From the sequence record MK373784.1: 64,000 nucleotides of DNA, one strand, 5' to 3'. Both the position numbers and the translations under genes were made by a program. Below the pieces are notes generated by a model that did not search any database, was not told where the DNA came from, and worked only from the letters and a program-made list of their open reading frames with translations. Below are positions 4,384-34,544 of this stretch, piece by piece. The DNA is from Escherichia phage vB_EcoM_MM02. Positions within the stretch are counted from its first letter, which is position 1. Every line of letters begins with the position of its first letter.

Positions 4384-4584
4384 TTATTCGTAGAAGTCGG
4401 TAACTGTCCATGCGGAATTGCGATTAGACATTATTTTATTATACTCATCTTTAAAAGCAGATTTGAGCATTTGTTCAGTAACAATATGTTCTTCACCTGA
4501 AAACGTATTGGTCAAAACATATTTTTTAATTTCAGGGACAACAAGAAGATGTTGACCGGTTGAATACTCCATGTTGTTCTCCAT
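4384..4584 (-). CDS. Hypothetical small protein (T4 45.2 position)
   Basis: 66-aa ORF tightly packed between 46 and rpbA. Confidence 0.4.
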   Translation of the reverse strand: MENNMEYSTGQHLLVVPEIKKYVLTNTFSGEEHIVTEQMLKSAFKDEYNKIMSNRNSAWTVTDFYE

Positions 4585-4591
4585 TTAATTT

Positions 4592-4614
4592 GATGTGGTC
4601 ATTATAACCACATC
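4592..4614 (-). promoter_or_regulatory. Inverted repeat enclosing a TTATAAT box (promoter/stem-loop cassette)
   Basis: gatgtgg ... ccacatc arms flank attataa, just upstream of the 4384..4584 ORF. Confidence 0.4.
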
Positions 4615-4626
4615 GTGTTAAAGCGT

Positions 4627-8815: not shown

Positions 8816-9356
8816 ATAAAAAATCCAAACTAGGCGAATCGCTAACAACTTCCTTCTTTTCAGCCCCAGGAGCTTTATAAGCGGATTCTTCATAATGCGT
8901 CATTTTATCGTAGATGTCTTGAATAAATGTTTCATCTACCAACGCTACCATATCATCGTCATGACTGTCGTAGACATTATGAACGAAGTAACTATATTTC
9001 TTTGCAACTTCCTTACGTTCTTTTTTGATACGTTGGACAAAAGCATTAAAACAAGCTCGAGTTATGTATGCATGTGGGTTATTGTACTTAGTTTCGTCGA
9101 AATTATGAAGTCCCTTAATAGAGGCTTCAATCCCATCTGCAATCATCTCCTGCTTCCAAGACTGGGTATATCCTGAAAAGTTGAAACGTTTGGACAGGCC
9201 TTCGGCGATAAGCATAATTGCTAAACCGATGGTATCATTCTGACGAATAATTTTGTTTGGGTCTTTATTATTTAAGAGCTCCTTTTTCCACTCGATTATA
9301 GCGGCGAGAAGCTCTTTATTATTCACATAGTTATTTTTAGGTTTTTGTTCAGTCAT
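8799..9356 (-). CDS. 55: Late-transcription sigma factor gp55
   Basis: Sequence ...[16 protein letters not shown]...[28 protein letters not shown]... recognised as T4 gp55; ATG at 9356 with AGAGG SD gives 185 aa. Confidence 0.9.
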
Positions 9357-9377
9357 AAGTACCTCTTGGCTCAATTC

Positions 9378-9412
9378 ATAGGTCTATTATATCATAATAT
9401 TTAGAGACCTAT
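9378..9412 (-). promoter_or_regulatory. Promoter/stem-loop cassette upstream of 55
   Basis: 8-bp inverted repeat ataggtct/agacctat with a TATAAT in the loop; a TGCTTTA (MotA-box-like) lies just upstream on the minus strand. Confidence 0.4.
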
Positions 9413-9428
9413 CTTAAAGCACGAGATA

Positions 9429-9698
9429 CTATCGGAGCAAACAATAAGCCTGAAACACTTTTTCCATTAAACGTTTGAACTCATGGATATCGATATAAAG
9501 CTCAGTAAGACCGGCATTATAAAGAAAATCTAAAAAGTTCTCATGTGTTTCGTTATAGTCGCCTTCGTTTAATTGAGATACATGAGTTTCCCAAAAACCA
9601 ACACCTTTAACGAACGGAAAATACGTGACTTTCATGTATTCGTCAACATAAAATTCGCCCAGCTTTTCTTCAGTTATACTGATTCGAGTTAATTTCAT
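9429..9698 (-). CDS. Hypothetical protein
   Basis: 89-aa ORF. Confidence 0.4.
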   Translation of the reverse strand: MKLTRISITEEKLGEFYVDEYMKVTYFPFVKGVGFWETHVSQLNEGDYNETHENFLDFLYNAGLTELYIDIHEFKRLMEKVFQAYCLLR

Positions 9699-9922
9699 TC
9701 TAGTTCCTTTGCTGCTTCAAGAGCAGCATCCAGCGAATCAAATTGGTCAACGAAATCAATATTCAACGCATCGTCAACCGTAGCATATAACCACCATTGT
9801 TTGAATTCGTATTCTAGAATAAATCCAGGACCTTCAATCTGAGGAAGACCTAGACTATTTGTACCAACTTCGTAACCAGCTAGACGCAGGTCATTAATCA
9901 AAGTTTCTGTTAATACGCTCAT
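9695..9922 (-). CDS. Hypothetical acidic protein
   Basis: 75-aa ORF with 4-nt start/stop overlaps to neighbours. Confidence 0.4.
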   Translation of the reverse strand: MSVLTETLINDLRLAGYEVGTNSLGLPQIEGPGFILEYEFKQWWLYATVDDALNIDFVDQFDSLDAALEAAKELE

Positions 9923-10251
9923 TTTACCGCCTTAACAATTTTAAGGTCAACGAATTTTTTCTTACGTTGATTTTTCATACGACGGATAGTCTTTTCAGAG
10001 ATTTCATGTTTCTGATAAGCTTTAGATTCAACACCAAATGCAGCAACGTCAAATTCAGAAAGAATATATTGTACTAGAATTTCACGAATAGAATTACGTC
10101 CAATTTTCTGGTCGTGTTTTTGCATGATTTCATAAAGACGGAATTCCCACGCATCAAGAACTTGAGGAGTAACAACATTGCCAGATTCCAGAAGAGCAAC
10201 AACTTTATCGAAAGCGAAAGAATTAACTACGTTTTTGATTTTAGTAGACAT
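9919..10251 (-). CDS. Hypothetical protein
   Basis: Likely start MSTKIKN at 10251 with GAGGA SD; the upstream extension lies inside the promoter cassette. Confidence 0.4.
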   Translation of the reverse strand: MSTKIKNVVNSFAFDKVVALLESGNVVTPQVLDAWEFRLYEIMQKHDQKIGRNSIREILVQYILSEFDVAAFGVESKAYQKHEISEKTIRRMKNQRKKKFVDLKIVKAVK

Positions 10252-10269
10252 ATTATTTTCCTCGGTTAT

Positions 10270-10318
10270 TTTATTATCCAACGAGAGAATTATACTCATC
10301 TCTCAAGAGTTTGTATAC
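10270..10318 (-). promoter_or_regulatory. Promoter/stem-loop cassette (gagaga/tctctc arms flanking TATAAT)
   Basis: Near-identical to 41098..41147 apart from compensatory stem changes. Confidence 0.5.
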
Positions 10319-10557
10319 TATTTTTTAAGCATGAAAAGTAAGTAATTTGTATCACGTGGAGTAATATCAACACCCATATCAAAGATGCCTTTATAGATTG
10401 GGTATTTGTTTTCTGTTGTATCGAAGCTGAAACTATTTCCATCACAACTAACAGTAATAGCATCTGTTAAAATGTCATACTCAATCCTAACAATTGAATC
10501 ACCAATTTTAACGTCGAGGTGTTTTTTGAATTTGATAAAATCTAATTCTTGGGCCAT
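10318..10557 (-). CDS. Hypothetical protein
   Basis: 79-aa ORF. Confidence 0.4.
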   Translation of the reverse strand: MAQELDFIKFKKHLDVKIGDSIVRIEYDILTDAITVSCDGNSFSFDTTENKYPIYKGIFDMGVDITPRDTNYLLFMLKK

Positions 10558-10620
10558 GATATTTTCCTCATTTTAAGACGATAGGAAGATAATAACATGT
10601 CTTCCTATCGTTGTACATTA

Positions 10621-10821
10621 TTAACCGAACTTTTTAGCGCCTTTCCAGCCTTCGTACATAACTGCACAAGTCAGTAGTACAGCGTGCTGGCATTCTTTGT
10701 ATTTGTAAATCCAGAACCAGCGTAAGAAGTCTTCATCCTCAACGCCGTTGAGTTTCATATTGGCAAAGAATTCGGCACGTTCTTCACGAAGCTTTTGCGA
10801 TAACATAGATTCAGGATTCAT
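10621..10821 (-). CDS. Hypothetical protein
   Basis: 66-aa ORF. Confidence 0.35.
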   Translation of the reverse strand: MNPESMLSQKLREERAEFFANMKLNGVEDEDFLRWFWIYKYKECQHAVLLTCAVMYEGWKGAKKFG

Positions 10822-11045
10822 TTTGTGTTCCAGGCCCCATTTTCATCGATGAACTTAATCCAGTCATTTACAGACCATTTAGTTGTATCACCCTTTGGAT
10901 TAACATTTAAAGTATATAATCCCTGCTTAAAAAGCATTCGTTTGATATTCATAATTTCCTCAACTGTAACGATAACATTCGTTAGCTTTACGTTTGGCTT
11001 CAGTATGAGAAGTATTATAATCATACTCTTCTTTACTGTAAACAT
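10818..11045 (-). CDS. Hypothetical small protein (start uncertain)
   Basis: 75-aa ORF overlapping 10960..11280; real start probably an internal Met. Confidence 0.25.
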   Translation of the reverse strand: MFTVKKSMIIILLILKPNVKLTNVIVTVEEIMNIKRMLFKQGLYTLNVNPKGDTTKWSVNDWIKFIDENGAWNTK

Positions 11046-11280
11046 CTTTTTTCAACTTACGAACTTCTTTGCGGAGTTGTCGATTCATTTCATTCTTGAC
11101 TTCAGAATCAACGCCTTTCATACGTTTCCATTTATCTGAGCGGAAAATGTTTTCAACCATGTCTTTGTGGCTAACACCGTCAGGAGCTTTACGCTTACCA
11201 AAATAGTCATAATCGCGAACTTTCAAATCTTTACGACGATACGTTTTACCCATAAGTACCTCAGAGGTTGATTGATACAA
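10960..11280 (-). CDS. Hypothetical basic protein
   Basis: 106-aa Lys/Arg-rich ORF. Confidence 0.4.
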   Translation of the reverse strand: MYQSTSEVLMGKTYRRKDLKVRDYDYFGKRKAPDGVSHKDMVENIFRSDKWKRMKGVDSEVKNEMNRQLRKEVRKLKKDVYSKEEYDYNTSHTEAKRKANECYRYS

Positions 11281-11509
11281 CGCGTTTGATAAAATTCACT
11301 TCACTTACTGAAAGGTCTTTAAGACCGATTGATTCTAAACGCTGAGTAAGCGTCAACATCGGGATATAATCCCAATGAGTTTTATTTGCTTGATAAGTAC
11401 GAACGCCATTAGCAATTTCAACATGCAAATCGGAAATGGTAACGAATACCGGACGTTCGTCATTAACTTTAAGGGTTAGAACAACTTTCTTTGAATCTAA
11501 ACTAATCAT
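11261..11509 (-). CDS. Hypothetical protein
   Basis: 82-aa ORF. Confidence 0.4.
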   Translation of the reverse strand: MISLDSKKVVLTLKVNDERPVFVTISDLHVEIANGVRTYQANKTHWDYIPMLTLTQRLESIGLKDLSVSEVNFIKRVVSINL

Positions 11510-11688
11510 GACTTAATTTCCTTCGCAATTGAACAGAAGATACCACGGTCACAAAGCATTTCACCAATTTCTGGATATTTGATTGAACGGTACCAAACAT
11601 CCAGGCTTGAAACTCTGGTTATCTGTATGGCATTACCATTGACAGAATAGTACTGGTCAACCTTAATTTCTTTATCTTCAATTGTCAT
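11506..11688 (-). CDS. Hypothetical small protein
   Basis: Likely start MTIEDKEIK with GAGGA SD; the upstream extension overlaps a promoter cassette. Confidence 0.35.
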   Translation of the reverse strand: MTIEDKEIKVDQYYSVNGNAIQITRVSSLDVWYRSIKYPEIGEMLCDRGIFCSIAKEIKS

Positions 11689-11854
11689 TTTATTTTCCTC
11701 TATAGTAGATGGTTTAATCTTAACACATCTATTGAGGATGTAAACTGTTTTATGAAAATATTTTTTGATTTGAGAGGGGCACAAGGAGATAGTGAAGTGA
11801 AGATTCCAATGGATTATATTAGAAATGAGATAAAGAAGACCAGGCGGCACCTGG

Positions 11855-12178
11855 TCAATCTTCTATGATATCAGAGTCATATCCTAATGAAATCAAGGAC
11901 TTTTTAAACTCTGCAATATTCTTTTGTTTCTTATCATTTAAAAATATGACAGGATAACGAATATTAAGTGAAGTGAATCCTGCACGTTTAGCAAGAGATA
12001 CGATTAAAGGACGGTCATATTCAATCTTACCATTATTAGTGAGGACTTTATAAAATGTATAAGGAGCATTGAGATCCTTTAAAAGTTTTGTAACAGCATA
12101 ACATCCTGGACAACGTCCTACTTCTTCAGGGATGCCATAGATTTCAATCTTGTTCTTTAAGTTCGAGTTTTGTTCCAC
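11855..12178 (-). CDS. Glutaredoxin/NrdH-like redoxin (start uncertain, possibly GTG)
   Basis: CPGC active-site motif after KIEIYGIPEEVGR; the upstream part of the track ORF is the antisense shadow of 12144..12461. Confidence 0.5.
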   Translation of the reverse strand: MEQNSNLKNKIEIYGIPEEVGRCPGCYAVTKLLKDLNAPYTFYKVLTNNGKIEYDRPLIVSLAKRAGFTSLNIRYPVIFLNDKKQKNIAEFKKSLISLGYDSDIIED

Positions 12179-12461
12179 GAGAAATAATTCCTTGGTAAGC
12201 CCAATAAGGAGGATTAACAGAATCCTCGCCAGAGTTTTCTTCAGGAAAATAAACCTGGATAACAAATCCAGATTCATCAAAGGTAAAATAAACCGTAGGC
12301 AATTCACCTAACAATTCGGCACGAGCATTAATTTCTTCTAGATCTCGTTCACGTCCAGCCCAAAAACTAGGATTTAGATTACATTCGTAAAAATAATAGT
12401 CATTACCGAACATATCAAAACCCTTCCAACTCTCTACCACATACCGCTCAAAACTAATCAT
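12144..12461 (-). CDS. Hypothetical protein
   Basis: 105-aa ORF. Confidence 0.4.
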   Translation of the reverse strand: MISFERYVVESWKGFDMFGNDYYFYECNLNPSFWAGRERDLEEINARAELLGELPTVYFTFDESGFVIQVYFPEENSGEDSVNPPYWAYQGIISRGTKLELKEQD

Positions 12462-12463
12462 AA

Positions 12464-12679
12464 TTAAGCCTTTTTATCAAGAACAGAATTCAGTTTATTA
12501 GTAATTTTGTCCAAACGTTCATTGAATTCGCTGGAGGATAAACCCTTTTCTGGAGAAATTAAACTAATCACGAAAAATACACCAGTAAAAGGAATAAGAA
12601 AAATAGCTCCAACTGCCATAAACAAAAAGAACGTTACAGTTGTAAGAAAATCAGCTAAACCTTTACGAAATTTGTACAT
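12464..12679 (-). CDS. Hypothetical small membrane protein
   Basis: 71 aa with one strongly hydrophobic helix. Confidence 0.4.
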   Translation of the reverse strand: MYKFRKGLADFLTTVTFFLFMAVGAIFLIPFTGVFFVISLISPEKGLSSSEFNERLDKITNKLNSVLDKKA

Positions 12680-12789
12680 ATTTACCCTTAATTAACTAAG
12701 CATTGATAATCATTAAACTATATTGCGAATAAAATTCTGGACCAAAACGAAAAATCATATCATTTATAGTATCCATAATGTAATTCAAT

Positions 12790-13260
12790 TTAATCATGTT
12801 TCCACACCCCATCGCTATTTGACCAAAGTCGCTGATTATCTGATCCTCGCCAAAGCTTTTTAGTCGGAAGATTTTTCTCATACTTCCCATCAATAATAAC
12901 ATCAACATATTTAAGCATTTCTAGTTGTTTAATATCTTCAAACTTATATCCTGTCCACAACCAAATGCTTTTATTGGGATAAAGATTTTTTACTGTTTGA
13001 GCAATGCGATGAATAACATCTCGGTTATCAGGATAGAGAGGGTCTCCTCCGGTTATAGTTAATCCTTCTATATAATCATTATTCAAACATTCAATCAATT
13101 GTTCTAGTGTCTCTCCAGTGAATGGAGTACCATTTCTAGCATTCCATGTTGATTTATTATAACACCCTTCACATTTATGCAAACAACCTGTAACGAAAAG
13201 AACGACCCTGCATCCAGGGCCATTCACAAAATCGCAAGGATAAAATCTATCATAATTCAT
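12790..13260 (-). CDS. nrdG: Anaerobic ribonucleotide reductase activating protein NrdG (radical SAM)
   Basis: 156 aa; Cx3Cx2C motif CLHKCEGC; directly downstream of nrdD. Confidence 0.85.
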   Translation of the reverse strand: MNYDRFYPCDFVNGPGCRVVLFVTGCLHKCEGCYNKSTWNARNGTPFTGETLEQLIECLNNDYIEGLTITGGDPLYPDNRDVIHRIAQTVKNLYPNKSIWLWTGYKFEDIKQLEMLKYVDVIIDGKYEKNLPTKKLWRGSDNQRLWSNSDGVWKHD

Positions 13261-15074
13261 TGGTGTTTAACCCTATGCATGATTTCTTTATTTTTACCGA
13301 GATTAAATCCGCGCTCGTTCGGATTTCCCAAATAGCCGCATGTTCTTCTTATAGTGTTCATCTTTTTAGGATCAGTTTCTCCACAAACTGAACAAACAAA
13401 TCCGTTTTCAGTAGGAGTCATCTCATGGGTACTTCCACATGTAAAACATTTATCTACTGGCATATTAACACCAAAATAATCTAAATGTTGTGCAGCATAA
13501 TCCCAGACAGCCTCGAGTCCCTTTAAATTGTTTTTCATATCAGGAAGTTCAACATAAGAAATGTGACCACCTGTCGCAATGAAATGATATGGCGCTTCAC
13601 GAGAAATCTTTTCAAACGGAGTAATATTTTCTTCTACTGAAACATGGAAACTATTAGTGTACCAGCCTTTATCGGTAACATCCTTTACATTTCCATATTT
13701 TTCTGTATCGAGTTTACAGAAGCGATAACAAAGGTTTTCAGCAGGAGTAGAATACAAACTAAAAGCAAATCCAGTTCTTTCGGACCACTGTTTAAGATGA
13801 GCATTCATTTTAGTTAAAATTTCTTGCCCAATATCACGACCGACAAGAATATTCAATTCGTGAATACCAATGTATCCTAAAGACACTGAACTTCTACCGT
13901 TTTTAAATAACTCAATTATGTCGTCATCAGGTTTAAGACGAACCCCGAATGCACCTTCTTGGTAAAGAATAGGAGCAACAGTAGCTTTAACTCCTTTTAA
14001 GGAACTAATTCTACACATCAAAGCTTCAAAACATAAATCCATTCGTTCATTGAATAATTCAACAAATTTCTGTTCGTTAAATTGCGTTCCAATATAAGAA
14101 TCTAACGCGATGCGAGGAAGATTCAATGTTACAACACCAAGATTATTGCGACCATCAAGAATTTCATTACCGGTCGAATCTTTCCATACGCTCAAGAAAC
14201 TACGGCAGCCCATTGGAGAAACAGGAACTGAAGAACCGGTAATAGCTTTATTATTCTTAACCGAAATAATGTCAGGATACATTCTTTTGCTTGCACATTC
14301 TAACGCAAGTTGTTTAATATCATAGTTCGGATCATCTTTATAAAGATTAACACCTTCTTCAACAAACATAACAAGTTTAGGAAAAATAGGAGTTATTCCA
14401 TCACGACCAAGACCTTTAATGCGGTTTTTAAGAATTGCCTTCTGAATCATTCGTTCGGTCCAGTCAGTTCCCGTACCAAATGTAATTGTTACAAAAGGCG
14501 TTTGTCCGTTTGAACTAAAGAGAGTATTTACTTCATATTCATAAGCTTGGAATGCATCGTATACATCTTTTTCTGTTTTGGATTGAGCATAATTCAACGC
14601 ATCAGCGATTTGCCATTTTTCTGCATCCTCAATATGTTTAGCGTATGTGCGTTTAACATAAGGAGAAAGAACTTTATCTACATTCGCAAATGTAGTTCCG
14701 CCATACTGGTGTGAAGCAACTTGTGCGGTAATTTGTGCCATAATTGCAGTAGCAACGCCAATAGATTTAGGCGTTTCAATTTGAGCATTGCCTAATTTAA
14801 ATCCATTCTCAAGCATTCCTTTTAAATCTACTAAACAGCAATTAGTAAAAGGCAATGATATACTGTAATCTAAATCATGAAAATGAATTAATCCAACATT
14901 ATGGGCATTTACAATATGACTTGGAAGAATACGACAAGCGATATGTTTAGAAACAATACCGGCCATTAAATCTCTTTTTGTTGGAAAGACACGAGAATCT
15001 TTGTTGGCGTTTTCGGTATTTAATTCTTTATCTTTATTTGAAATAAAATTTAAAACATCTTTCTCTAAAGACAT
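13257..15074 (-). CDS. nrdD: Anaerobic ribonucleoside-triphosphate reductase NrdD
   Basis: 605 aa; C-terminal Zn-ribbon cysteines and glycyl-radical motif RRTCGYLG; uninterrupted. Confidence 0.9.
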   Translation of the reverse strand: MSLEKDVLNFISNKDKELNTENANKDSRVFPTKRDLMAGIVSKHIACRILPSHIVNAHNVGLIHFHDLDYSISLPFTNCCLVDLKGMLENGFKLGNAQIETPKSIGVATAIMAQITAQVASHQYGGTTFANVDKVLSPYVKRTYAKHIEDAEKWQIADALNYAQSKTEKDVYDAFQAYEYEVNTLFSSNGQTPFVTITFGTGTDWTERMIQKAILKNRIKGLGRDGITPIFPKLVMFVEEGVNLYKDDPNYDIKQLALECASKRMYPDIISVKNNKAITGSSVPVSPMGCRSFLSVWKDSTGNEILDGRNNLGVVTLNLPRIALDSYIGTQFNEQKFVELFNERMDLCFEALMCRISSLKGVKATVAPILYQEGAFGVRLKPDDDIIELFKNGRSSVSLGYIGIHELNILVGRDIGQEILTKMNAHLKQWSERTGFAFSLYSTPAENLCYRFCKLDTEKYGNVKDVTDKGWYTNSFHVSVEENITPFEKISREAPYHFIATGGHISYVELPDMKNNLKGLEAVWDYAAQHLDYFGVNMPVDKCFTCGSTHEMTPTENGFVCSVCGETDPKKMNTIRRTCGYLGNPNERGFNLGKNKEIMHRVKHQ

Positions 15075-15886
15075 AATTCTAATTTATCCTTTTGAAATTC
15101 TTCGTCTAAATATGGGTTCCAACCCATTTTAAACCTTTTGATGAAATTATCAATTCTAAATTTCGGTAAGTTTAAATCCGCAAAAATAGATGATTTACTT
15201 TTAAAATCTGGACCTAAATAATCATATAAAATTTCTGCGTATTTTAACCATAATATACAAGTACCGGATTTAATTGCGTTCGGAGTTTTCCAAGGTTTTA
15301 CACCATACATCGGATTTCCACTTCCTTTATGCCTGATAGAAGATGAAATTCCAATTTTAATTTTAGCTTCCTTTGTATGCGAAAATCCACGATGCGGATT
15401 TTCTTTCCAGTATTTTTTAGAAGCTTCTGATATTTTCTTTCTGGCTAAATTAGTATGATGCTTTCCATAAAATCCATTATTTTTGCCTTTATTACGATTT
15501 CTTTTAATCATGGTTATTGATTGCTTTTCTCTAGTTTCTTTAGAAGGAGAAATACCATATGTCGTAAATTTGCCATCAGCATATGCTAAATTAAAATACT
15601 CTTTATTCCATACATCTTTTTCTATATTCTTTTGAAATTCAGCTTCAATGCTAGTTATTTGTTCATCTCCGACTAATTGAAAATATAATATTTCAACTTT
15701 CGGCGTTTCTTTCAATAAGGCTTTTTGAAATTCGGAAGATGACGAAGACGAATAATAAAATTTACCATTTTTATCAATAATATTCGTTCCATCAAAAGTG
15801 CAATTGGTTTTACTTCCAATGTAATAATATGGTGGGGTTTTAGCATTAATTCTATTAATAAATGATAGTTTATATACTACATTCAT
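15065..15886 (-). CDS. Free-standing GIY-YIG homing endonuclease (Seg-like) with NUMOD3-type repeats
   Basis: N-terminal VVYKL...YYYIGSK pattern; two HTxxAKxKIS-like repeats; overlaps both the gene 49 stop and the nrdD start. Confidence 0.6.
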   Translation of the reverse strand: MNVVYKLSFINRINAKTPPYYYIGSKTNCTFDGTNIIDKNGKFYYSSSSSSEFQKALLKETPKVEILYFQLVGDEQITSIEAEFQKNIEKDVWNKEYFNLAYADGKFTTYGISPSKETREKQSITMIKRNRNKGKNNGFYGKHHTNLARKKISEASKKYWKENPHRGFSHTKEAKIKIGISSSIRHKGSGNPMYGVKPWKTPNAIKSGTCILWLKYAEILYDYLGPDFKSKSSIFADLNLPKFRIDNFIKRFKMGWNPYLDEEFQKDKLELCL

Positions 15887-16356
15887 TTTAAACTCTTTCT
15901 AAGCTGCTTTTTGAATGAAGCTATTAATTGTGTTTTAGTATCAGATTCATTATATTCAAATCCTCTTTGAAGCATCTCAGCCATCATTTCCTCTTTACCT
16001 AGTCTTGAGAACTCTTTAGTTTTGTCTGGAACAAAATTAGGATGGATATTATTATCAGAATAATCTTGTTTCAAATAAGCAAGAAGAGCTTCAAGCCATT
16101 CGAGGTAATCAACGTTTTTACCTTTAAGACCAGAACGGTTGAACTTATGCTTCATTTGGCCTTCTGCTGCGTTGCACAGAGAACAGAGTAACCCACGAAC
16201 TCTACCGGCTTTTGGCCCGTTTAATTCGTGGTCGTGGTCAAGATGGTTACCTTGAACATCAGGGTCTAATTCACGGTGGCAAATAGGACACTTACCATTC
16301 TGTGCATCATAAAATTTTTGTTTTTCTTCTTTATATTTTGCGCCTGATAATAACAT
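15883..16356 (-). CDS. 49: Endonuclease VII (Holliday-junction resolvase) gp49
   Basis: 157 aa; ...KFYDAQNGKCPICHRELDP...HLDHDHELNGPKAG... recognised as T4 gp49. Confidence 0.9.
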   Translation of the reverse strand: MLLSGAKYKEEKQKFYDAQNGKCPICHRELDPDVQGNHLDHDHELNGPKAGRVRGLLCSLCNAAEGQMKHKFNRSGLKGKNVDYLEWLEALLAYLKQDYSDNNIHPNFVPDKTKEFSRLGKEEMMAEMLQRGFEYNESDTKTQLIASFKKQLRKSLK

Positions 16357-18587: not shown

Positions 18588-19537
18588 TATAACACCTCAA
18601 TGGCATTTCGTAAACCATCCGCTTTCGCGTTCAGAGCTTTTAACGATTTAGTTTGTTCTGCAATCTGGGCTTCGACTTCTTTCAGACGAGATTTGAGATA
18701 TTCGCGTTCTTCTCTTAAGTTATCAACTTTTTCTGCTTTAGGCTCTTTAATAGGCTTAGGCTTATACTCGTTAGGGTTCTTCAACTTAATTTGAATGCGA
18801 GAACTGTATAACATTGAACCATTATCTTCGGTTTCATCATACATTTCTACCACGTCCATGATTCTTAACATCATGCGAAGTTTATAAGACAGCGAACGAA
18901 TGGTTTTATTGTGCTTCTTAATTTCTTCAGCTTTCATGGTGCCGAGATTACGTGAGTAATAATAAGGAACCTGAATATCAATTGATAATGATGCGGTACC
19001 ATTACCGGTTGGTTTGAACACTGCAGTAACCCAATCTTTAGCATGAACTGTATTTGTACGATCATCGCCGCCTGTGAATAATTTACGAGAATGTTTAAAA
19101 AGCATATTCACTTGGTTATTGAATTCACAAGCAAATTTATCAGCAAATTTAGTTTCAGGAATGGTAGTTAACCAATCAGCCAAATGAGTCTTTTTAACAT
19201 CATTAACAATAGTGAATTCAACCAAATCGGTTTTAGATGTCACAGATTTAATAAAGCTCGGCTTCATAAAGTTTTTAATGTTATCGCGAGCTACAGTAGA
19301 AGATAATAAACGAGAACGTTTGAACCATTGAAGCAGTGTCCCTAATGAATGAGAATATGCATTTTGAGTATCTTTACAGATATGATTTTCTTGGCCTATG
19401 TATGTACCAAAATCGCGAAGAATACCACTTACTACATCTCGGTGTGGAACATCAAATCCTAGTACACCAGAAGCACGTTGGGCATGAACGTTAGCGATAA
19501 GACCTGCAAAGTATTCAATGTAATGTGAACGTGTCAT
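18587..19537 (-). CDS. Hypothetical 316-aa protein with C-terminal coiled coil
   Basis: First of three consecutive ~320-aa ORFs each preceded by a promoter cassette. Confidence 0.5.
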   Translation of the reverse strand: MTRSHYIEYFAGLIANVHAQRASGVLGFDVPHRDVVSGILRDFGTYIGQENHICKDTQNAYSHSLGTLLQWFKRSRLLSSTVARDNIKNFMKPSFIKSVTSKTDLVEFTIVNDVKKTHLADWLTTIPETKFADKFACEFNNQVNMLFKHSRKLFTGGDDRTNTVHAKDWVTAVFKPTGNGTASLSIDIQVPYYYSRNLGTMKAEEIKKHNKTIRSLSYKLRMMLRIMDVVEMYDETEDNGSMLYSSRIQIKLKNPNEYKPKPIKEPKAEKVDNLREEREYLKSRLKEVEAQIAEQTKSLKALNAKADGLRNAIEVL

Positions 19538-19565
19538 AATATTTTCCTCTCGTTAAGATAAATTC

Positions 19566-19595
19566 ATTATACTCCAACCATCCTTGGTTGTAAAC
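19566..19595 (-). promoter_or_regulatory. Early-type promoter cassette (GTTTAC, 18-nt spacer with caacca/tggttg IR, TATAAT)
   Basis: 27 of its 30 nt recur at 20586..20612. Confidence 0.5.
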
Positions 19596-19599
19596 TGAT

Positions 19600-20559
19600 T
19601 TATGATTTTAACGCATTCATTGCGTTAAAAAGTTTAGAGTACTGCAACTGGAGCTTGGTAACTACTTGTTGAGCATCACGAAGCTTAGCTTGTGCTTTGT
19701 CAAGTTCAACAGACAGTTGGTCCATAGTGGCCTTGATTTGATTATAATGGTAATCTTCGACCGGAAGAAGGTCATTAGAAACATTTAGTTTTACTGCAGA
19801 CAGTTTGCACACATTTGGCAAACCTTTAAACATTGATTTACCCGAAGTAGAATAAGCACTTAGGACTTCGGCCTGTTCAATTGGGGTTGCAGTAATTGAC
19901 GCTTCGAACGTTGCATTTTCCTTTTTAAGATTTTGATAGTATTCAGAGTCTTTGTGCCACCATGGCGCAGGAACCTTTTTACCAATAGATACACGAGCCT
20001 GGATAGCGATATGGCCCTTATTCTTGATAGTGTTGATAATATTAAGCTCACGAGAATAAATTGCTTTAATCTGGTGGATATTATCACCTAAAACTTCCAA
20101 CGCTTGGTGGAATACACGAGCAACGTTATCATTCTTAGGTTTATACGTAAGAGTGAACTCGTTCTCACTGATAACCATGATTTCTAACTTATCGTAAGTA
20201 TATTTCAAATGTTTCATGTTAATTGCTTGAGGACGAATACGAGAAGCAATGGCCATCAGATTGTTAAGGTTATTCCGGAACTGCTTAGCGAAATATTGTC
20301 CTTCACCGCCAATACAAAAATTACGAAGTTTCTGTTTGGCCAATAAACGGCTGAACTCGCCATTTTTAATGAACTCTTTAACGGGTGTGTTAGTAACGCA
20401 TTCAAATTGAGTAAACTTACGAGAAGTAATACCATAATATGAACAGACTTCCTCAATCTCTTCAGGAGTCTTTACAGGCATACGGATAGGATTAGGTCCT
20501 GGAGTATATGCGTTCGAGGTAAATTCTTTGATAAGTTCTCTACGTGTAATAAAAGCCAT
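19600..20559 (-). CDS. Hypothetical 319-aa protein with C-terminal coiled coil
   Basis: Second of the triplet. Confidence 0.5.
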   Translation of the reverse strand: MAFITRRELIKEFTSNAYTPGPNPIRMPVKTPEEIEEVCSYYGITSRKFTQFECVTNTPVKEFIKNGEFSRLLAKQKLRNFCIGGEGQYFAKQFRNNLNNLMAIASRIRPQAINMKHLKYTYDKLEIMVISENEFTLTYKPKNDNVARVFHQALEVLGDNIHQIKAIYSRELNIINTIKNKGHIAIQARVSIGKKVPAPWWHKDSEYYQNLKKENATFEASITATPIEQAEVLSAYSTSGKSMFKGLPNVCKLSAVKLNVSNDLLPVEDYHYNQIKATMDQLSVELDKAQAKLRDAQQVVTKLQLQYSKLFNAMNALKS

Positions 20560-20585
20560 TTTATATTCCTCATGTTGAAAAATTT

Positions 20586-20612
20586 ATTATACTCCAACCA
20601 TCCTTGGTTGTA
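20586..20612 (-). promoter_or_regulatory. Promoter cassette, duplicate of 19566..19592
   Basis: Identical 27-mer attatactccaaccatccttggttgta. Confidence 0.5.
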
Positions 20613-20614
20613 CA

Positions 20615-21672: not shown

Positions 21673-22200
21673 TTATGCGTGAACCGTCTTTAAACGTTCT
21701 TCAAATTTCCGAAGAGTACTAATACGTTCTGCTTTCTGTTTTGTATAGTTTGCAATACGTTCTGAAGTGAGAGCGTATCGTTCGTTTACTGATTCTTTCA
21801 TGAAGTCAGGGATTTCACGAGAAGCTTTAATTTCATCAAACTTATCGAGTACTGCCTGGTCTTCAGCGATTAAATTTTCGTACATCTCGATATCTTTCTT
21901 GATAAACTCGATATCTTCCTGGGTTACTTTGGATAAACGAGATGCTTTATCCTTTTTGTACTGCTCGTTAGTTTCACGAGACCAGAATAATGTACGTTTT
22001 TTGTTAGTGTTTTTGTAGACTTCCACAATTCCAACTGAATCGATGATAACAATCCAATTCCAGCGAGATTTGAAAATCTGGCCTCCGTCCACGGTAATCT
22101 CGTTACCATAAGCAATGTCATTAAAGAACTTACTTTGTGCTTCAGATTTAAATTTACCGTCGTTATAATTTACCAGGTTGAAAATATCTTTAGCGTTCAT
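21673..22200 (-). CDS. Hypothetical protein
   Basis: 175-aa ORF. Confidence 0.45.
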   Translation of the reverse strand: MNAKDIFNLVNYNDGKFKSEAQSKFFNDIAYGNEITVDGGQIFKSRWNWIVIIDSVGIVEVYKNTNKKRTLFWSRETNEQYKKDKASRLSKVTQEDIEFIKKDIEMYENLIAEDQAVLDKFDEIKASREIPDFMKESVNERYALTSERIANYTKQKAERISTLRKFEERLKTVHA

Positions 22201-22218
22201 GTTTTACCTCCAGTAGTT

Positions 22219-22256
22219 GATAGGTCTATAATAACATAACCATAGACCTTGTAAAC
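22219..22256 (-). promoter_or_regulatory. Promoter/stem-loop cassette (aggtctat/atagacct arms, GTTTAC -35)
   Basis: IR flanks an ATTAT-rich -10 region; gtaaac on the plus strand at its distal end. Confidence 0.45.
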
Positions 22257-22683: not shown

Positions 22684-23685
22684 TTATTTCAGTAAAGTAA
22701 CTTCCGAGATTTCCTCCCAACCATCTTTATCAGTTGAAATAAAATCTGCTACATAAAGAGCCGTACGTAATGATACATTGCGAAGACGAGATACGTTAGC
22801 CTTCATCCAGGACAATGCTTTATACGTTTCTGCATCAGTCAGACCACGTTTCTGCATCATGTCAGTAGATAATATTACATCTTCAACTCGAACCATAATC
22901 TCTTCATTAGAGTGTACTCCAAGGTCGAGATACACTGAACGAGATACTAAAGCTTGAAGGTGTGGAGCAAGTTTCGAACCCCGTTCTAACTCTTTATCGA
23001 TATCAACGTTTGTAATGAAAACGATAGTACCTTCAAACTCAAATTCTTTATCAATACCCTTATCCTCGAGATAAGATGACGCAGTGCTCCAACAAACTTT
23101 GCGTTTATCTCCGGTGTCTAATGCTGCTTTAAGAAGATTCAAGATGTCCATATCTGAGAATACGTCAACGTCGTCGATTAAGAGAACGCTGTCTGCATCA
23201 CGGTTGAGCCAAAGTTGTTCGTAAAGGCCAATACCAGAGATTTTACCATTAATGCTTTTGTATTTGATGAAACCGTTATCATTAGCATTATTAAGTGCTT
23301 TATCCAGAGAATACGTCTTACCAATACCGGCTGCACCTGAAATAATGAGTGAACGAATTTTGCCATCGATAATGCCATTCGTCATCATGTTCATTACTTT
23401 AAAGCGTTTGTTGATACGAGTTTTCATATCTTCAGTGCTTTCAACAACTGCAACTGGTGATGTCTCAACTCCTTCCATTACGATGTCTGATTTGAAGACC
23501 CATACTCCACGTTCAGAACCATCAATCATAACGAAAATTTTACCATCACCTAAGTGGGAACATTCAGGATTAAGCTTTGCCGGGAACCAGGTCTTTGTGG
23601 CAACATAAGAACCAGAGATTTCGTTATTACGATAGATACCTTTTTTGATTTGAATGTTGAACATTTTATTCTCCAATTTACTCAT
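22684..23685 (-). CDS. Predicted P-loop NTPase (AAA-like)
   Basis: 333 aa; Walker A GAAGIGKT and Walker B VLLIDDVD after a ~110-aa N-terminal domain. Confidence 0.6.
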   Translation of the reverse strand: MSKLENKMFNIQIKKGIYRNNEISGSYVATKTWFPAKLNPECSHLGDGKIFVMIDGSERGVWVFKSDIVMEGVETSPVAVVESTEDMKTRINKRFKVMNMMTNGIIDGKIRSLIISGAAGIGKTYSLDKALNNANDNGFIKYKSINGKISGIGLYEQLWLNRDADSVLLIDDVDVFSDMDILNLLKAALDTGDKRKVCWSTASSYLEDKGIDKEFEFEGTIVFITNVDIDKELERGSKLAPHLQALVSRSVYLDLGVHSNEEIMVRVEDVILSTDMMQKRGLTDAETYKALSWMKANVSRLRNVSLRTALYVADFISTDKDGWEEISEVTLLK

Positions 23686-23782
23686 TTCGTTTCGATAGGT
23701 CTATAGTATCATATCCTAAAAGCATGTACACTACTTTTTAAAAATATTTTAACCCCCTAAAGGGACCCGAAGGTCCCCACAT

Positions 23783-26265: not shown

Positions 26266-26372
26266 TTTACCATACTCGTTTCAATAAGATTCACTATGCC
26301 GTTTACCATGTTATAGGTAAACATCGGATAATTGTATTGTACTACAACATAAGCGATAAGCAAAAGTTTCAT
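26262..26372 (-). CDS. Hypothetical 36-aa hydrophobic peptide
   Basis: MKLLLIAYVVVQYNYP...; sits directly downstream of a promoter cassette. Confidence 0.25.
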   Translation of the reverse strand: MKLLLIAYVVVQYNYPMFTYNMVNGIVNLIETSMVK

Positions 26373-26383
26373 TTTGTTCTCCG

Positions 26384-26433
26384 TTTGTTTTGATAGGACT
26401 ACTATAACATAGTCCTACCAAGATGTAAACTAC
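26384..26433 (-). promoter_or_regulatory. Promoter/stem-loop cassette (GTTTAC, taggacta/tagtccta IR flanking TTATAGT)
   Basis: 50-mer identical to 45091..45140. Confidence 0.55.
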
Positions 26434-26663: not shown

Positions 26664-26823
26664 ACATTTGCAATTCGGTGTGGGCTTCAGCCATCTTTTT
26701 CATAGCTCTGTTAATGTCGATGTCTCCATCTTCGCAACCATGAGCATTTTCCCAATCGGATACAGAATTAGCATACTCTTCAATCAAAAACATCAACTTA
26801 GAAATCTTTTCTTTACGTGTCAT
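26644..26823 (-). CDS. Hypothetical small protein
   Basis: Likely start MTRKEKISKL with GAGGAG SD; the upstream extension lies inside a promoter cassette. Confidence 0.35.
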   Translation of the reverse strand: MTRKEKISKLMFLIEEYANSVSDWENAHGCEDGDIDINRAMKKMAEAHTELQMYVNEIM

Positions 26824-26829
26824 AACGTT

Positions 26830-26879
26830 CTCCTCTAGTAAGTAAGGACTACTATAACACAACCTGAGGAGAAGTAAAC
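26830..26879 (-). promoter_or_regulatory. Promoter cassette with SD-containing inverted repeat (ctcctc/gaggag)
   Basis: GTTTAC at the distal end; the 3' arm of the IR carries the GAGGAG SD of the downstream ORF. Confidence 0.45.
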
Positions 26880-30016: not shown

Positions 30017-30475
30017 CTAGATTTTAATCACTGCTTTAGAAGCTTTTCCTGGTAGTCGTTTATTGTTAATAATAGCCATTCTGCATTGAAGAGTCTTCAT
30101 TTTGAATGCCGGATTTTCGCGACAAACTGTAAGTCCTAACCAAAGATTTCCGTCAGTTATTTCTAAACGGCCTGGACGATACTCGACACCTTCGACAAAA
30201 TCTTCATCAACATCTGGACGTGCCGGCATTGATAAAAATTCTGCAACTTCTTTAACGTGATTTTTTACTTTATGAAATAATTCAAAAACGTAATTCTCAT
30301 CTATTTCTCTCTGGATGGCACGATCTAAGAGATGTTGAGAATACTTGATATGAAAGCCTGGTAGTCCAAGAGACTTTGCAGCATCTTTTATACCGACATT
30401 TATTTTGCGGAACTCCGTTTCAAAGATTCGACGGAGTTTATTACGGCGGATAAAAACTTCCGAATTGATAGTCAT
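30017..30475 (-). CDS. regB: Endoribonuclease RegB
   Basis: MTINSEVFIRRNKLRR... recognised as T4 RegB; ATG at 30475 with GAGGAG SD. Confidence 0.85.
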   Translation of the reverse strand: MTINSEVFIRRNKLRRIFETEFRKINVGIKDAAKSLGLPGFHIKYSQHLLDRAIQREIDENYVFELFHKVKNHVKEVAEFLSMPARPDVDEDFVEGVEYRPGRLEITDGNLWLGLTVCRENPAFKMKTLQCRMAIINNKRLPGKASKAVIKI

Positions 30476-30483
30476 TTTGATTT

Positions 30484-30532
30484 CTCCTCTAGTTGACAAG
30501 TCTATAGTAACACAACTAGAGGAGAAGTAAAC
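30484..30532 (-). promoter_or_regulatory. Promoter cassette with 12-bp inverted repeat sequestering the regB SD
   Basis: GTTTAC, 17-nt spacer, TACTAT; IR arms ctcctctagttg/caactagaggag; the 3' arm is the regB Shine-Dalgarno. Confidence 0.5.
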
Positions 30533-30831
30533 TACTCTTTGAAAGGAATTAACTTTTTAACTGCTTTAGATACTTCGTCACGAACCTGATGGAAGTTCTT
30601 GAGCTGTTCAAGGCGTTGTTCGTAATACGCAATCTCATCTTCTTCAAGACAATCGTCAGCGTCTTCTTTCAGATATGCCTTGTACTCATTAAAGAGGGCC
30701 CATAGGCGGTTCTCAAAGTCATCAAGGCTTTGAATTTTCTTGTGCTTCAGAACAAGGCCAAAAGGATTGCTTTCAGTTATGCGTCTAGATGCTTCATAAT
30801 GAGTTCCAAAGCCTGATAGGATTTGAGCCAT
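30532..30831 (-). CDS. Hypothetical protein
   Basis: 99-aa ORF. Confidence 0.4.
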
Positions 30832-32560: not shown

Positions 32561-32637
32561 ATGAATTGTCCATTTCTGTATTTACCCCTCCAAGTAATTA
32601 TGAATATACTATCACAATTCTAGGAGAAAGTAAACTG

Positions 32638-33685: not shown

Positions 33686-33690
33686 AATTT

Positions 33691-33742
33691 CCTCCAAGTA
33701 GTTGATGAATGTATAGTATCAAAACCCTTGGAGGAAGTAAAC
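33691..33742 (-). promoter_or_regulatory. Promoter cassette with inverted repeat sequestering the denV SD
   Basis: GTTTAC, TACTAT-like -10; arms cctccaag/cttggagg, the 3' arm being the denV Shine-Dalgarno. Confidence 0.45.
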
Positions 33743-34510: not shown

Positions 34511-34512
34511 AA

Positions 34513-34536: not shown

Positions 34537-34544
34537 TTTATTAC

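Follow-up and report, generated by a model that had tools for sequence, protein, structure and literature searches.

Intergenic promoters that carry a stem-loop are known from several T4-type phages as PeSL cassettes (Arbiol 2010, PMC2839356; Comeau 2014, PMC4122927). The stem-loops of RB49 and phi1 overlap the -10 box or sit in the promoter spacer and contain G-T pairs, and one of them reduced lacZ read-through as strongly as did the rrnB T1 terminator (PMC2839356). PeSLs have also been described for T4/PST and KVP40/nt-1 (PMC4122927). The other relevant precedent is the set of T4 hairpins that sequester the ribosome-binding sites of genes e, soc, 49 and I-TevI and have an internal promoter (PMC3014915). 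Because the 5' arm of such a hairpin lies upstream of the start site of the internal promoter, the hairpin is present only in read-through RNA. In addition, RegB cleaves early mRNAs at GGAG sites between genes, which creates 3' ends where exonucleases can enter (PMC3014915).

The DNA analyzed here is a stretch of 64,000 nucleotides from Escherichia phage vB_EcoM_MM02 (MK373784.1), referred to as the window. Its recurrent promoter-hairpin units belong to the PeSL cassettes and do not form a new type of element, and thus the frequent intergenic repeat of RB69-like phages is now placed in the published class. As in the published cassettes, a sigma-70-type early promoter follows an A/T-rich tract, the stem-loop sits in the spacer or overlaps the -10 box and includes G-T pairs, and the 3' end is a Shine-Dalgarno sequence plus start codon. 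The cassettes are likewise intergenic, adjoin small genes of unknown function in plastic regions at indel and replacement breakpoints, and have a middle-promoter version (PmSL in nt-1, the gene 55 promoter here). The differences are that the genus Mosigvirus (RB69-like) was not treated in either paper (PMC2839356, PMC4122927; "RB69" is absent from the 2010 text), that the stems of the window contain more A/T and have none of the polyG/polyC tracts seen in RB49, and that the -35 hexamer is TTTACA, TGTACA or TATACA rather than TTGACA. Moreover, terminator activity and mini-circles have been demonstrated experimentally for RB49/phi1 only, and what is visible of mini-circle formation here is a sequence footprint. 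Formal covariation, a wobble bias of the sense strand and an exclusion with terminators were not described in those papers ("compensatory" is absent from the 2010 text).

With the start site where it is predicted, the cassettes would resemble the T4 ribosome-binding site hairpins in having their 5' arm ahead of it. However, the known T4 cases involve late promoters whereas the cassettes are early or middle promoters, and in the two cassettes under study the 3' arm ends near the predicted +1, leaving the Shine-Dalgarno sequence and AUG uncovered. The T4 type itself also occurs in the window: the classic case is at 34511-34538, and versions with an early promoter are at 26821-26878, 30473-30531 and 33683-33741.

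The original prediction concerned two copies, 10270-10318 and 41098-41147, and quoted the strand opposite to their functional sense, which is the minus strand. Each is an early promoter whose -10 box is enclosed by a hairpin, and the phage is of the RB69-like T4 type (Mosigvirus). Along the minus (coding) strand one cassette makes up one whole intergenic gap, in the order stop codon, A-rich tract, -35 box, 17-nt spacer, TATAAT, leader, Shine-Dalgarno sequence and ATG. The promoter of cassette 1 (TATACA-17-TATAAT, 10317-10289, minus strand) matches the consensus at 10 of 12 positions and that of cassette 2 (TTTACA-17-TATAAT, 41145-41117, minus strand) at 11 of 12; both were promoter-like in a scan, and the same layout of -35 box, about 17 nt and -10 box recurs in about 20 more cassettes. 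The A/T-rich upstream tracts are TTAAAAAATAG-TATACA (cassette 1) and TTAAAAAATAA-TTTACA (cassette 2), the stop codon of the upstream gene abuts the -35 box in both, and the Shine-Dalgarno/start-codon segments that follow are GAGGAAAATAATATG and AAGGTAATAATATG. The promoter spacer holds the 5' arm of the hairpin; the 3' arm follows the -10 box and precedes the start site, which was predicted from the usual distance of about 7 nt past the -10 box. Intergenic gaps were listed using a crude gene caller whose output, used for gaps only, included spurious ORFs on the plus strand and lacked a gene at about 41146-41373. The features of the window are as follows.

10249-10317, minus strand: cassette 1, from -35 box to ATG; the upstream stop codon TAG (10318-10320) abuts the -35 box
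9919-10251, minus strand: gene following cassette 1, a gp55.2 homologue (DUF7570)
10312-10317, minus strand: cassette 1, -35 hexamer TATACA
10299-10304, minus strand: cassette 1, 5' arm GAGAGA (sense), in the spacer
10289-10294, minus strand: cassette 1, -10 hexamer TATAAT, in the hairpin loop
10283-10288, minus strand: cassette 1, 3' arm TCTCTC, past the -10 box and before the predicted start site
10270-10281, minus strand: leader motif TTGGATAATAAA, predicted 5' end of the transcript
41073-41145, minus strand: cassette 2, from -35 box to ATG; the upstream stop codon TAA (41146-41148) abuts the -35 box
40482-41075, minus strand: gene following cassette 2, an e.6 homologue
41140-41145, minus strand: cassette 2, -35 hexamer TTTACA
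41127-41132, minus strand: cassette 2, 5' arm GAGAGC
41117-41122, minus strand: cassette 2, -10 hexamer TATAAT, in the loop
41111-41116, minus strand: cassette 2, 3' arm GCTCTC
26370-26429, minus strand: cassette of the TAGGACTA class with a 13-bp helix (arms 26409-26421 and 26390-26402; -18 kcal/mol, z = -6.1; covariation)
36708-36767, minus strand: cassette of the TAGGACTA class, -35 box TGTACA
38272-38331, minus strand: cassette of the TAGGGCTA/TAGTCCTA class, one G.U wobble
45068-45136, minus strand: cassette of the TAGGACTA class, before a 61-aa ORF (44885-45070) annotated tRNA.4 in the relative L002
22198-22255, minus strand: cassette of the AGGTCTAT/ATAGACCT class, before NrdC.8
36967-37036, minus strand: cassette of the AGGTCTGTAGT/ACTATAGACCT class, one G.U pair
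10555-10617, minus strand: cassette with a 12-bp stem ACGATAGGAAGA/TCTTCCTATCGT around the -10 box
45426-45491, minus strand: cassette with stem AGGATGATGGTG/TACTATCATCCT
4570-4622, minus strand: cassette with stem GATGTGGT/ACCACATC, TATAAT in the loop
9354-9421, minus strand: gene 55 middle promoter of the same architecture, MotA box TGCTTTA, stem ATAGGTCT/AGACCTAT around the -10 box
19535-19594, minus strand: cassette with stem CAACCA/TGGTTG wholly in the spacer; twin at 20557-20614
40456-40473, minus strand: for comparison, a canonical intrinsic terminator, GGAGGAC-tccg-GTCCTCC plus TTTT, then leader TTGGATAATAAA
26821-26878, 30473-30531 and 33683-33741: cassettes that pair the spacer arm with the Shine-Dalgarno sequence
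15883-16356: endonuclease VII gene

The helices are 6-13 bp long and lie around the -10 box or in the spacer, with loops of 6-12 nt or more (most often 8 nt) that hold the -10 box. The 3' arm reaches 4-14 nt beyond the -10 box in the two cassettes under study as well as in the TAGGACTA and AGGTCT classes, with no pairing of the Shine-Dalgarno sequence or the start codon. Folding z scores were -2.7 to -6.1 in 9 of 13 stem-bearing cassettes and -1.4 to -2.3 in the remaining four. All cassettes of the window fall within 4.5-45.5 kb, among short minus-strand genes, and none is found in the late structural block.

That the two copies share flanks and differ by one paired stem change was confirmed: an A/C difference in one arm of a 6-bp stem is matched by T/G in the other. 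The flank TTTATTATCCAACGAGAG is identical at 10270-10287 and 41098-41115 (chance expectation 0.12 matches), as is CTCTCAAGAGTTTGTA at 10300-10315 and 41128-41143. On the plus strand the stems read GAGAGA (10283-10288)/TCTCTC (10299-10304) and GAGAGC (41111-41116)/GCTCTC (41127-41132). The 48-nt copies differ at four positions, two of which are partners in the loop-closing pair (A-T versus C-G). In simulations four random substitutions gave at least one compensatory double change with a probability of 0.011, a value that applies to this copy pair alone. The 10270 copy folds weakly (-8.5 kcal/mol, z = -1.4, equalled by 21 of 200 shuffles), and the 41098 copy gives -12.6 kcal/mol and z = -3.1. 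Paired changes of the same kind had also been claimed for the TAGGACTA/TAGTCCTA and AGGTCT classes. These are found between the two classes but within neither. The TAGGACTA/TAGTCCTA copies at 26394, 36731 and 45101 have identical core stems and thus no paired change, and between the AGGTCT copies at 22222 and 36996 one side alone has changed, giving a G.T wobble, and the register differs, with no double change. Between the classes, AGGACT/AGTCCT versus AGGTCT/AGACCT is an A-T to T-A swap.

The hairpin itself is under selection, as shown by paired base changes across related phages. Orthologous and paralogous cassettes from Mosigvirus, Dhakavirus, Tequatrovirus and Pectobacterium phage PM2 were compared, using IMG/VR anchor-protein searches (16, 8 and 14 loci) to which stem-agnostic DNA pattern scans were added. 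In alignments A1-A4, 93-96% of the cells were paired, versus 27-62% in shifted-register controls, and double changes were found in 4, 7, 5 and 8 pairs, respectively. The helix is kept with differing sequences across all four groups. The GAGAG class consisted of 17 distinct cassettes, part of which were collected using a pattern with N at every stem position; 95% of its cells were paired and both sides had changed in five of seven pairs. Its six core pairs were paired in 101 of 102 cells, whereas shifted registers gave 39-53%. For the TAGGACTA class (18 distinct cassettes) 92.7% of the cells were paired with double changes in 8 of 13 pairs, none of 500 shuffles reached any of five measures, and shifted registers gave 28-61%. 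Unrelated sequences fitting the same stem-agnostic patterns paired at only 0-5 of 7 and 1-10 of 13 positions. RNAalifold independently predicted the same helices.

Individual sites show the same behavior. Among phages the gp55.2 site carries GAGAGA/TCTCTC, GGGAGC/GCTCTC or GGGACC/GGTCCT and the e.6 site GAGAGC/GCTCTC or GAGGAC/GTCCTC, and one stem position runs A-U, G.U, G-C across copies. The same helix positions are filled by at least eight stem sequences, and a single genome can contain several of these. There is also counter-evidence: in L002 (mar005P1), a close relative, exactly the pair first flagged is a C.T mismatch, and at least three window cassettes (23664, 41430 and 41643) are stemless yet retain the 3'-arm motif TACTATAGACYTATCAA, which must therefore be constrained independently of pairing, as it is kept in cassettes that lack a 5' arm. 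Selection on the hairpin in addition to the promoter hexamers nevertheless survived the larger alignment, which the original prediction had named as its refuting test. These data add quantitative support, across four groups of T4-type phages, that the stem and not the promoter alone is kept by selection.

The mismatches bear on which strand folds. Among 202 distinct cassettes, isolated stem mismatches on the sense strand were 34 G.T versus 8 A.C, although strand-biased C-to-T mutation could supply part of this excess (the sense strand has a G excess of roughly 4-17%). For stems enclosing the -10 box the counts were nine and one. This bias fits a single folded strand, whether DNA or RNA. We infer that the structure acts as RNA.

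Cassette stems share several properties with intrinsic terminators: the hairpin lies just past an upstream stop codon, the two can be swapped at an orthologous site, and a terminator upstream excludes the stem. Stems over the -10/start region were found in 1 of 28 cassettes having an intrinsic terminator within 60 nt upstream versus 76 of 174 without one (Fisher p = 1.2e-5), or 1 of 17 versus 34 of 89 (p = 0.01) when each downstream-gene family was counted once; as the counted cassettes share phylogeny, these p-values are upper bounds on significance. At the gp55.2 site of Tequatrovirus relatives a true terminator (GGGCTTCGGCCC plus a T run) replaces the promoter-hairpin before the same GGATAATAAA leader. 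In contrast to terminators, the cassettes have longer loops that hold the -10 box, lower stem G+C and no U tract 3' of the stem, the tails being UCAAAAC or GUUGGAUAAU/GTTGGATAAT. A terminator scan called none of the cassette stems although it called 40473-40456. Given the missing U tract and the lack of a call, the cassette stems are not canonical intrinsic terminators. In an Rfam search of the whole window only two tRNAs reached the gathering score, and thus no known RNA family accounts for the cassettes. With only 13 nt between its genes 55.2 and 55.3, T4 yielded no orthologous cassette, and the one T4 stretch examined has few such promoter stems, which counts against the reading below; the T4 RefSeq record has no annotated promoter or terminator features at 36-46 kb.

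We consider it probable that the cassette is a PeSL-type promoter plus 3'-boundary unit, in which an RNA hairpin made only by read-through insulates neighboring gene modules. A strong sigma-70 early promoter occupies the gap between two small early genes, and its otherwise unconstrained spacer holds a 5' arm complementary to the stretch from the -10 box to the transcription start. As the 5' arm lies upstream of the predicted start site, the promoter's own RNA should not be able to form the hairpin, which would appear only in RNA coming in from the upstream gene. There it would mark the 3' boundary of the upstream cistron by attenuating read-through, by stopping 3'-to-5' exonucleases, or both; exonucleases would be blocked once the downstream leader or Shine-Dalgarno sequence had been cleaved. 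The leader GGAUUAUAA/GGAUAAUAAA may be an RNase E site (motif RAUUW). Either attenuation or 3' protection may be the dominant effect on the RNA. Canonical terminator hairpins do this job elsewhere in these genomes. The sense-strand wobble and the near absence of stems just after a real terminator (1 of 28) make this promoter-plus-terminator role testable.

Another RNA-level role, in control of the downstream gene, seems unlikely. The read-through hairpin would shape the leader such that translation or cleavage by RegB or RNase E differs from that of locally initiated RNA. The principle is established in T4 for genes e, soc, 49 and I-TevI (PMC3014915), GGAG sites are shielded from RegB by secondary structure, and 37 of the 202 distinct cassettes pair the spacer arm with the Shine-Dalgarno sequence. 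The two designs even replace one another between genera at the NrdC.8 site, where the partner of the spacer arm is the start region in the window and the Shine-Dalgarno sequence in JS98-type phages, an exchange that also speaks for the link to read-through. However, a 3' arm that stops 4-14 nt past the -10 box leaves the Shine-Dalgarno sequence free, so any effect on translation would be indirect. We regard as very unlikely a role on the DNA, in which the hairpin or inverted repeat tunes open-complex formation or the shut-off of early promoters minutes after infection. The helix does enclose the -10 box at early promoters and at the MotA-dependent middle promoter, but the stem can also be confined to the spacer or extend to the Shine-Dalgarno sequence, a promoterless terminator can stand in for it (gp55.2 site), and such a role predicts neither the sense-strand wobble bias nor the exclusion with terminators. 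Since the open complex melts only from about -11 to +2, the 5' arm would remain double-stranded. In favor of such a role, the mechanism of early-promoter shut-off is described as not completely understood (PMC3014915). Finally, the arms are inverted repeats, as in a palindromic operator for a dimeric DNA-binding protein, and the window has several near-identical copies, as duplication or recombination without function would give. We reject both the operator and chance, which have hardly any probability left, as they are contradicted by the covariation: eight or more stem sequences at the same helix positions do not make a single conserved protein site, double changes preserve pairing at orthologous sites in four genera, and random matches to the same patterns do not pair (the two-copy observation alone would have arisen by chance with a probability of about 0.01).

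Recombination on a DNA-level structure is an alternative about as unlikely as control of the downstream gene. The inverted repeat, as a cruciform or folded single-stranded DNA, would be the target of a structure-specific nuclease or recombination step (e.g., by the phage's own endonuclease VII), and modules would be excised and inserted as mini-circles, like integron attC sites. The endonuclease is encoded in the window, cassettes lie at indel and replacement breakpoints between close relatives, the mini-circle crossover of RB49 mapped to the loop and Arbiol et al. left open a dedicated recombinase (PMC2839356). Moreover, two hybrids resemble in-loop crossovers: the gene 55 promoter of the relative L009 joins a Tequatrovirus-type 5' arm to a Mosigvirus-type 3' arm, which gives an A.C mismatch, and the gp55.2 site of L002 is an apparent hybrid with a C.T mismatch. 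G.T pairs would also be tolerated if one DNA strand folded by itself, but in a cruciform both strands must fold, and a symmetric structure is disfavored by the 34:8 ratio of G.T to A.C mismatches on the sense strand. Extrusion is energetically unfavorable for structures with long loops and short stems, and here the loops are most often 8 nt and reach 12 nt or more, and some stems have only 6 bp. The cruciform is thus held unlikely on account of its strand-asymmetric wobble pairs and long loops. Recombination also needs no stem, as the conserved promoter homology suffices, and gives no obvious reason for exclusion with upstream terminators. It is more doubtful still that the hairpins are structure-specific recombination sites proper, with one folded DNA strand recognized by its shape as in integron attC. 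The further step, that a phage enzyme such as endonuclease VII cuts or resolves them and the promoter-gene units are mobile cassettes, is just as improbable. Were this true, modules would be excised as mini-circles and re-inserted at a different hairpin, with selection for mobility as the source of the covariation. The resemblance to attC (imperfect inverted repeats flanking cassettes, structure kept over sequence, signs of single-strand folding) is an analogy only: the attC box architecture is absent and the repeats are built around a promoter. To our knowledge these phages have no integrase.

If the cassettes insulate as proposed, every small gene would become a self-contained expression module, and the conserved promoter sequence would also provide homology for module-swapping recombination between phages. 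For phage engineering and annotation, these units of roughly 60-70 nt would delimit such modules and their exchange points. The breakpoints of the window relative to L027 and L002 fall in cassettes, and the segment that separates two adjacent cassettes, 36769-37030, is absent from L027.

The copies at 10270 (gp55.2 site) and 41098 (e.6 site) occupy whole intergenic gaps of 66 or 70 nt on the minus strand and share one order of elements: the upstream gene's stop codon, an A-rich tract, TATACA or TTTACA as the -35 box, 17 nt of spacer, TATAAT, a six-nt 3' arm, leader GTTGGATAATAAA, the Shine-Dalgarno, and finally ATG. A promoter consensus scan gave 10/12 and 11/12 for the two. The spacer holds the 5' arm of the hairpin and the loop holds the -10 box, with the 3' arm placed after this box and ahead of the expected start site. 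Because transcription from sigma-70 promoters begins ~7 nt past the -10 box, neither arm is expected in the RNA of the flagged promoters themselves. About 20 more minus-strand promoters in the window follow the same plan with differing stems, which are of three types (around the -10 box, in the spacer only, or between spacer and Shine-Dalgarno).

Minus-strand promoter cassettes in the window, by stem type
4570-4622 (-), stem around the -10 box
10555-10617 (-), stem around the -10 box
22198-22255 (-), stem around the -10 box
26370-26429 (-), stem around the -10 box
36708-36767 (-), stem around the -10 box
36967-37036 (-), stem around the -10 box
38272-38331 (-), stem around the -10 box
45068-45136 (-), stem around the -10 box
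45426-45491 (-), stem around the -10 box
9354-9421 (-), gene 55 middle promoter with MotA box TGCTTTA; helix ATAGGTCT/AGACCTAT around the -10 box
19535-19594 (-), stem entirely in the spacer
20557-20614 (-), stem entirely in the spacer
26821-26878 (-), spacer pairs with the Shine-Dalgarno
30473-30531 (-), spacer pairs with the Shine-Dalgarno
33683-33741 (-), spacer pairs with the Shine-Dalgarno

At 23664-23730, 41373-41430, 41584-41643, and 42147-42210 (-), TA(C/T)TATAGAC(C/T)TATCAA or TATAGTAGTCCTATCAA follows the -10 box without a complementary 5' arm, indicating that the start region is conserved there for a reason other than pairing.

Over positions 9000-13000 the window shares 99.5% identity with Escherichia phage vB_EcoM_G2469 of the genus Mosigvirus, the RB69-like branch within the T4-type phages. 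As annotated in a relative with 98% identity, the genes follow the T4 order (43, regA, 62, 44, 45, 46, 47, 55, nrdG, nrdD, 49, nrdC, tk, vs, regB, denV, e, tRNAs, ipI, 57, 1, 3, 2, and 4) on the minus strand up to ~48.5 kb, followed by plus-strand late structural genes, and so the cassettes must be read on the minus strand. Rfam searches of the window gave no matches besides two tRNA genes, 43483-43556 and 43563-43634 (-), which are tRNA-Arg and tRNA-Met in the relative's annotation. At 15065-15886 (-), flanked by nrdD and the endonuclease VII gene 49 (15883-16356), is a 273-aa ORF that carries a NUMOD3 motif and looks like a homing endonuclease; this segment is missing in mar005P1, a 98%-identical relative.

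The flanks said to be shared by the flagged pair are both exact, each occurring twice, at 10270 and 41098 (chance expectation for the 18-mer flank, 0.12 matches). The stems differ as described, GAGAGA/TCTCTC (10283-10288, 10299-10304) vs GAGAGC/GCTCTC (41111-41116, 41127-41132). Over 48 nt the copies have four differences, two of them at the bases that form the loop-closing pair; in simulation, four random substitutions gave a compensatory double change with probability 0.011. The original prediction also placed paired changes inside two secondary classes. The three copies of the TAGGACTA/TAGTCCTA class (26394, 36731, 45101) have identical core stems, and the two AGGTCT copies (22222, 36996) differ by a G.T wobble and in register; a paired change appears only between the classes (AGGACT/AGTCCT vs AGGTCT/AGACCT). 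The observation was therefore partly confirmed, being exact for the main pair and loosely described for the secondary examples. Folding gave -12.6 kcal/mol (z = -3.1) for the 41098 copy and only -8.5 (z = -1.4) for the 10270 copy. In nine of the cassettes whose stem surrounds the -10 box, energies ran from -13 to -18 kcal/mol (z from -2.7 to -6.1), with weaker folds for the gene 55 middle promoter (-9.3, z = -1.6), 11686-11744 (-9.4, z = -2.3), and the spacer-stem cassette 19535-19594 (-8.3, z = -1.8); three cassettes in this test were without any stem.

IMG/VR neighbourhoods of three flanking genes were collected and the 110 nt upstream of every orthologous gene were examined. The loci sorted into four groups: Mosigvirus, Dhakavirus (JS98 group), Tequatrovirus (close to Yersinia phage ZN18), and Pectobacterium phage PM2. 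At orthologous promoter sites the arms vary and complementarity is kept: GAGAGA/TCTCTC, GGGAGC/GCTCTC, and GGGACC/GGTCCT at the gp55.2 site; GAGAGC/GCTCTC, GAGGAC/GTCCTC, and in PM2 GTGTAGGAG/CTCCTACAC at the e.6 site. Upstream of the gene at 26372, TTGGTAGGACTA/TAGTCCTATCAA vs TTGGCAAGATTA/TAATCTTGTCAA amounts to three double changes, and the gene 55 helix of Tequatrovirus relatives, ATAGATCT/AGATCTAT, is a double change from that of the window. To guard against selection bias on the stem, IMG/VR was also scanned with promoter and leader positions fixed and all stem positions N. T4-type matches had 6-7/7 positions paired in one class and 11-13/13 in the other, one variant pairing in a shifted register (GGTAGGAAG/CTTCCTACC), vs just 0-5/7 and 1-10/13 in unrelated matches.

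Pairing in alignments of the GAGAG class (A1, A3; 7 pairs) and the 13-pair class (A2, A4)
A1: 11 sequences; 96.1% of cells paired; double changes at 4/7 pairs; shifted-register controls 36-53%
A3: 17 distinct sequences; 95.0% of cells paired; double changes at 5/7 pairs; shifted-register controls 39-53%
A2: 16 sequences; 93.3% of cells paired; double changes at 7/13 pairs; shifted-register controls 27-62%
A4: 18 distinct sequences; 92.7% of cells paired; double changes at 8/13 pairs; shifted-register controls 28-61%

In the six core pairs of A3, 101/102 cells are paired; none of 500 shuffles of A4 attained the observed value on any of five measures, and RNAalifold, given no helices, recovered the same ones. 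One position shows the full A-U, G.U, G-C path (TAGGACTA/TAGTCCTA to TAGGGCTA/TAGTCCTA to TAGGGCTA/TAGCCCTA). The sole core exception in the first class is mar005P1, in which GAGAGC faces TCTCTC, a C.T mismatch at the flagged pair that is either a surviving intermediate or the result of a crossover within the loop. The refuting outcome proposed for a larger alignment, stem variation without covariation, did not appear: stem positions vary and covary, and the covariation in A1-A4 supports the proposal that selection acts on the hairpin beyond the promoter hexamers. Covariation of functional stems is what a specialist would expect.

Among 202 distinct cassettes from all loci, isolated in-stem mismatches read on the sense strand were G.T in 34 cases vs A.C in 8 (9 vs 1 in stems enclosing the -10 box). 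Strand symmetry would be expected of a cruciform or of the site of a dimeric protein, and not of one folded sense strand, be it RNA or non-template DNA. The modest sense-strand G excess cannot account for the four-fold bias; strand-biased mutation may contribute. Where a canonical terminator, meaning a G+C-rich stem and a T run, lay ≤60 nt upstream, 1/28 cassettes carried a stem over the -10/start region, vs 76/174 of the cassettes lacking such a terminator (p = 1.2e-5), or 1/17 vs 34/89 (p = 0.01) when each downstream-gene family was counted once. At the gp55.2 site, Tequatrovirus loci have no promoter; they have a true terminator, then leader GGATAATAAA as in promoter cassettes. The window has the same arrangement at 40456-40473 (-), a canonical terminator with the same leader after it. 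Leader TTGGATAATAAA follows both the promoter hairpins (10270-10281, 41098-41109) and this terminator (40442-40453) (-), and is found in related loci L005-L011; an RNase E site was considered as its reading. Terminator exclusion and strand bias give two new, if modest, handles on the putative function of PeSL stems.

The flagged elements fit the PeSL cassettes known from the literature. In RB49 and phi1, Arbiol et al. reported early promoters with stem-loops that cluster in plastic regions and at the borders of indels; a stem-loop of this kind matched rrnB T1 in lowering lacZ read-through, and mini-circles arose by recombination between neighbouring cassettes (PMC2839356). Comeau et al. later added T4/PST and KVP40/nt-1 to the class, along with versions built on middle promoters (PMC4122927). 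Neither PMC2839356 nor PMC4122927 treats RB69-like phages or reports covariation analysis.

The reading we favour, and consider reasonably probable, is that the hairpin acts at the RNA level in read-through transcripts, as an attenuator and/or a 3' exonuclease barrier insulating gene modules. Promoter anatomy, covariation, strand bias, terminator exclusion, and the breakpoints at cassettes are observed; the start site, RNA as the folding strand, and the dominant RNA effect are inferred. RegB cleaves early mRNAs at intergenic GGAG sites, leaving 3' ends open to exonucleases (PMC3014915), which would make protection an obvious role for a hairpin directly upstream. Counting against it are the weak 10270 stem, the stemless cassettes, and the absence of a U tract from all promoter stems (the terminator scan calls none of them). 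Also against it is the 3'-arm motif TACTATAGACYTATCAA, retained without a partner at 23664, 41430, 41643, and 42147, indicating that part of the conservation is not structural.

Of the alternatives, a DNA-level recombination structure and an indirect control of downstream translation or decay carry equal weight, both being rather unlikely. For the former, homology breaks between the window and its relatives coincide with cassettes. Related locus L027 is without 36769-37030, the exact segment between two adjacent cassettes; more breaks fall at cassettes at 30542, 32587/32918, 41410/41577, 42156, and 45124/45409, and those with mar005P1 at 32563-32911 and 42210-42778 do likewise. Breakpoints inside promoter cassettes are as in the PeSL shuffling model. 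The gene 55 promoter of locus L009 is a hybrid, its 5' arm being of Tequatrovirus type and its 3' arm of Mosigvirus type; the junction thus falls in the loop and produces an A.C mismatch. A cruciform sits poorly with the G.T bias. For translational control, the spacer arm at the NrdC.8 site pairs with the start region in vB_EcoM_MM02 and with the Shine-Dalgarno in the JS98 group; the flagged stems leave the Shine-Dalgarno unpaired. Control of promoter activity on DNA, with the -10 box in the loop on its side and terminator exclusion on the other, is improbable, and an operator palindrome or chance, faced with both strand bias and covariation, is very improbable despite the palindromic arms.

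Gene-sized insertions, deletions, or replacements relative to L027 and mar005P1 lie at 36769-37030, 32563-32911, 42210-42778, 30542-30826, and 45124-45409. In the early-promoter cassettes 26821-26878, 30473-30531, and 33683-33741 (-), the Shine-Dalgarno region is paired with the spacer arm (e.g., TTCTCCTCTAGTTG/CAACTAGAGGAGAA), so that translation of the gene should be possible only on the transcript of its own promoter; orthologues of the JS98 type retain this pairing, with CTCCTGTAG/CTACAGGAG instead of CTCCTCTAG/CTAGAGGAG. A promoter inside the structure, so that the structure forms only in read-through RNA, is established for T4 e, soc, 49, and I-TevI, and for gene e early read-through transcripts are translationally silent (PMC3014915). 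Upstream of gene e of the window (lysozyme, 34022-34510), a 9-bp hairpin at 34511-34538 (-), AATACCTCC/GGAGGTATT, occludes the Shine-Dalgarno immediately at the start codon and is the classic T4 control.
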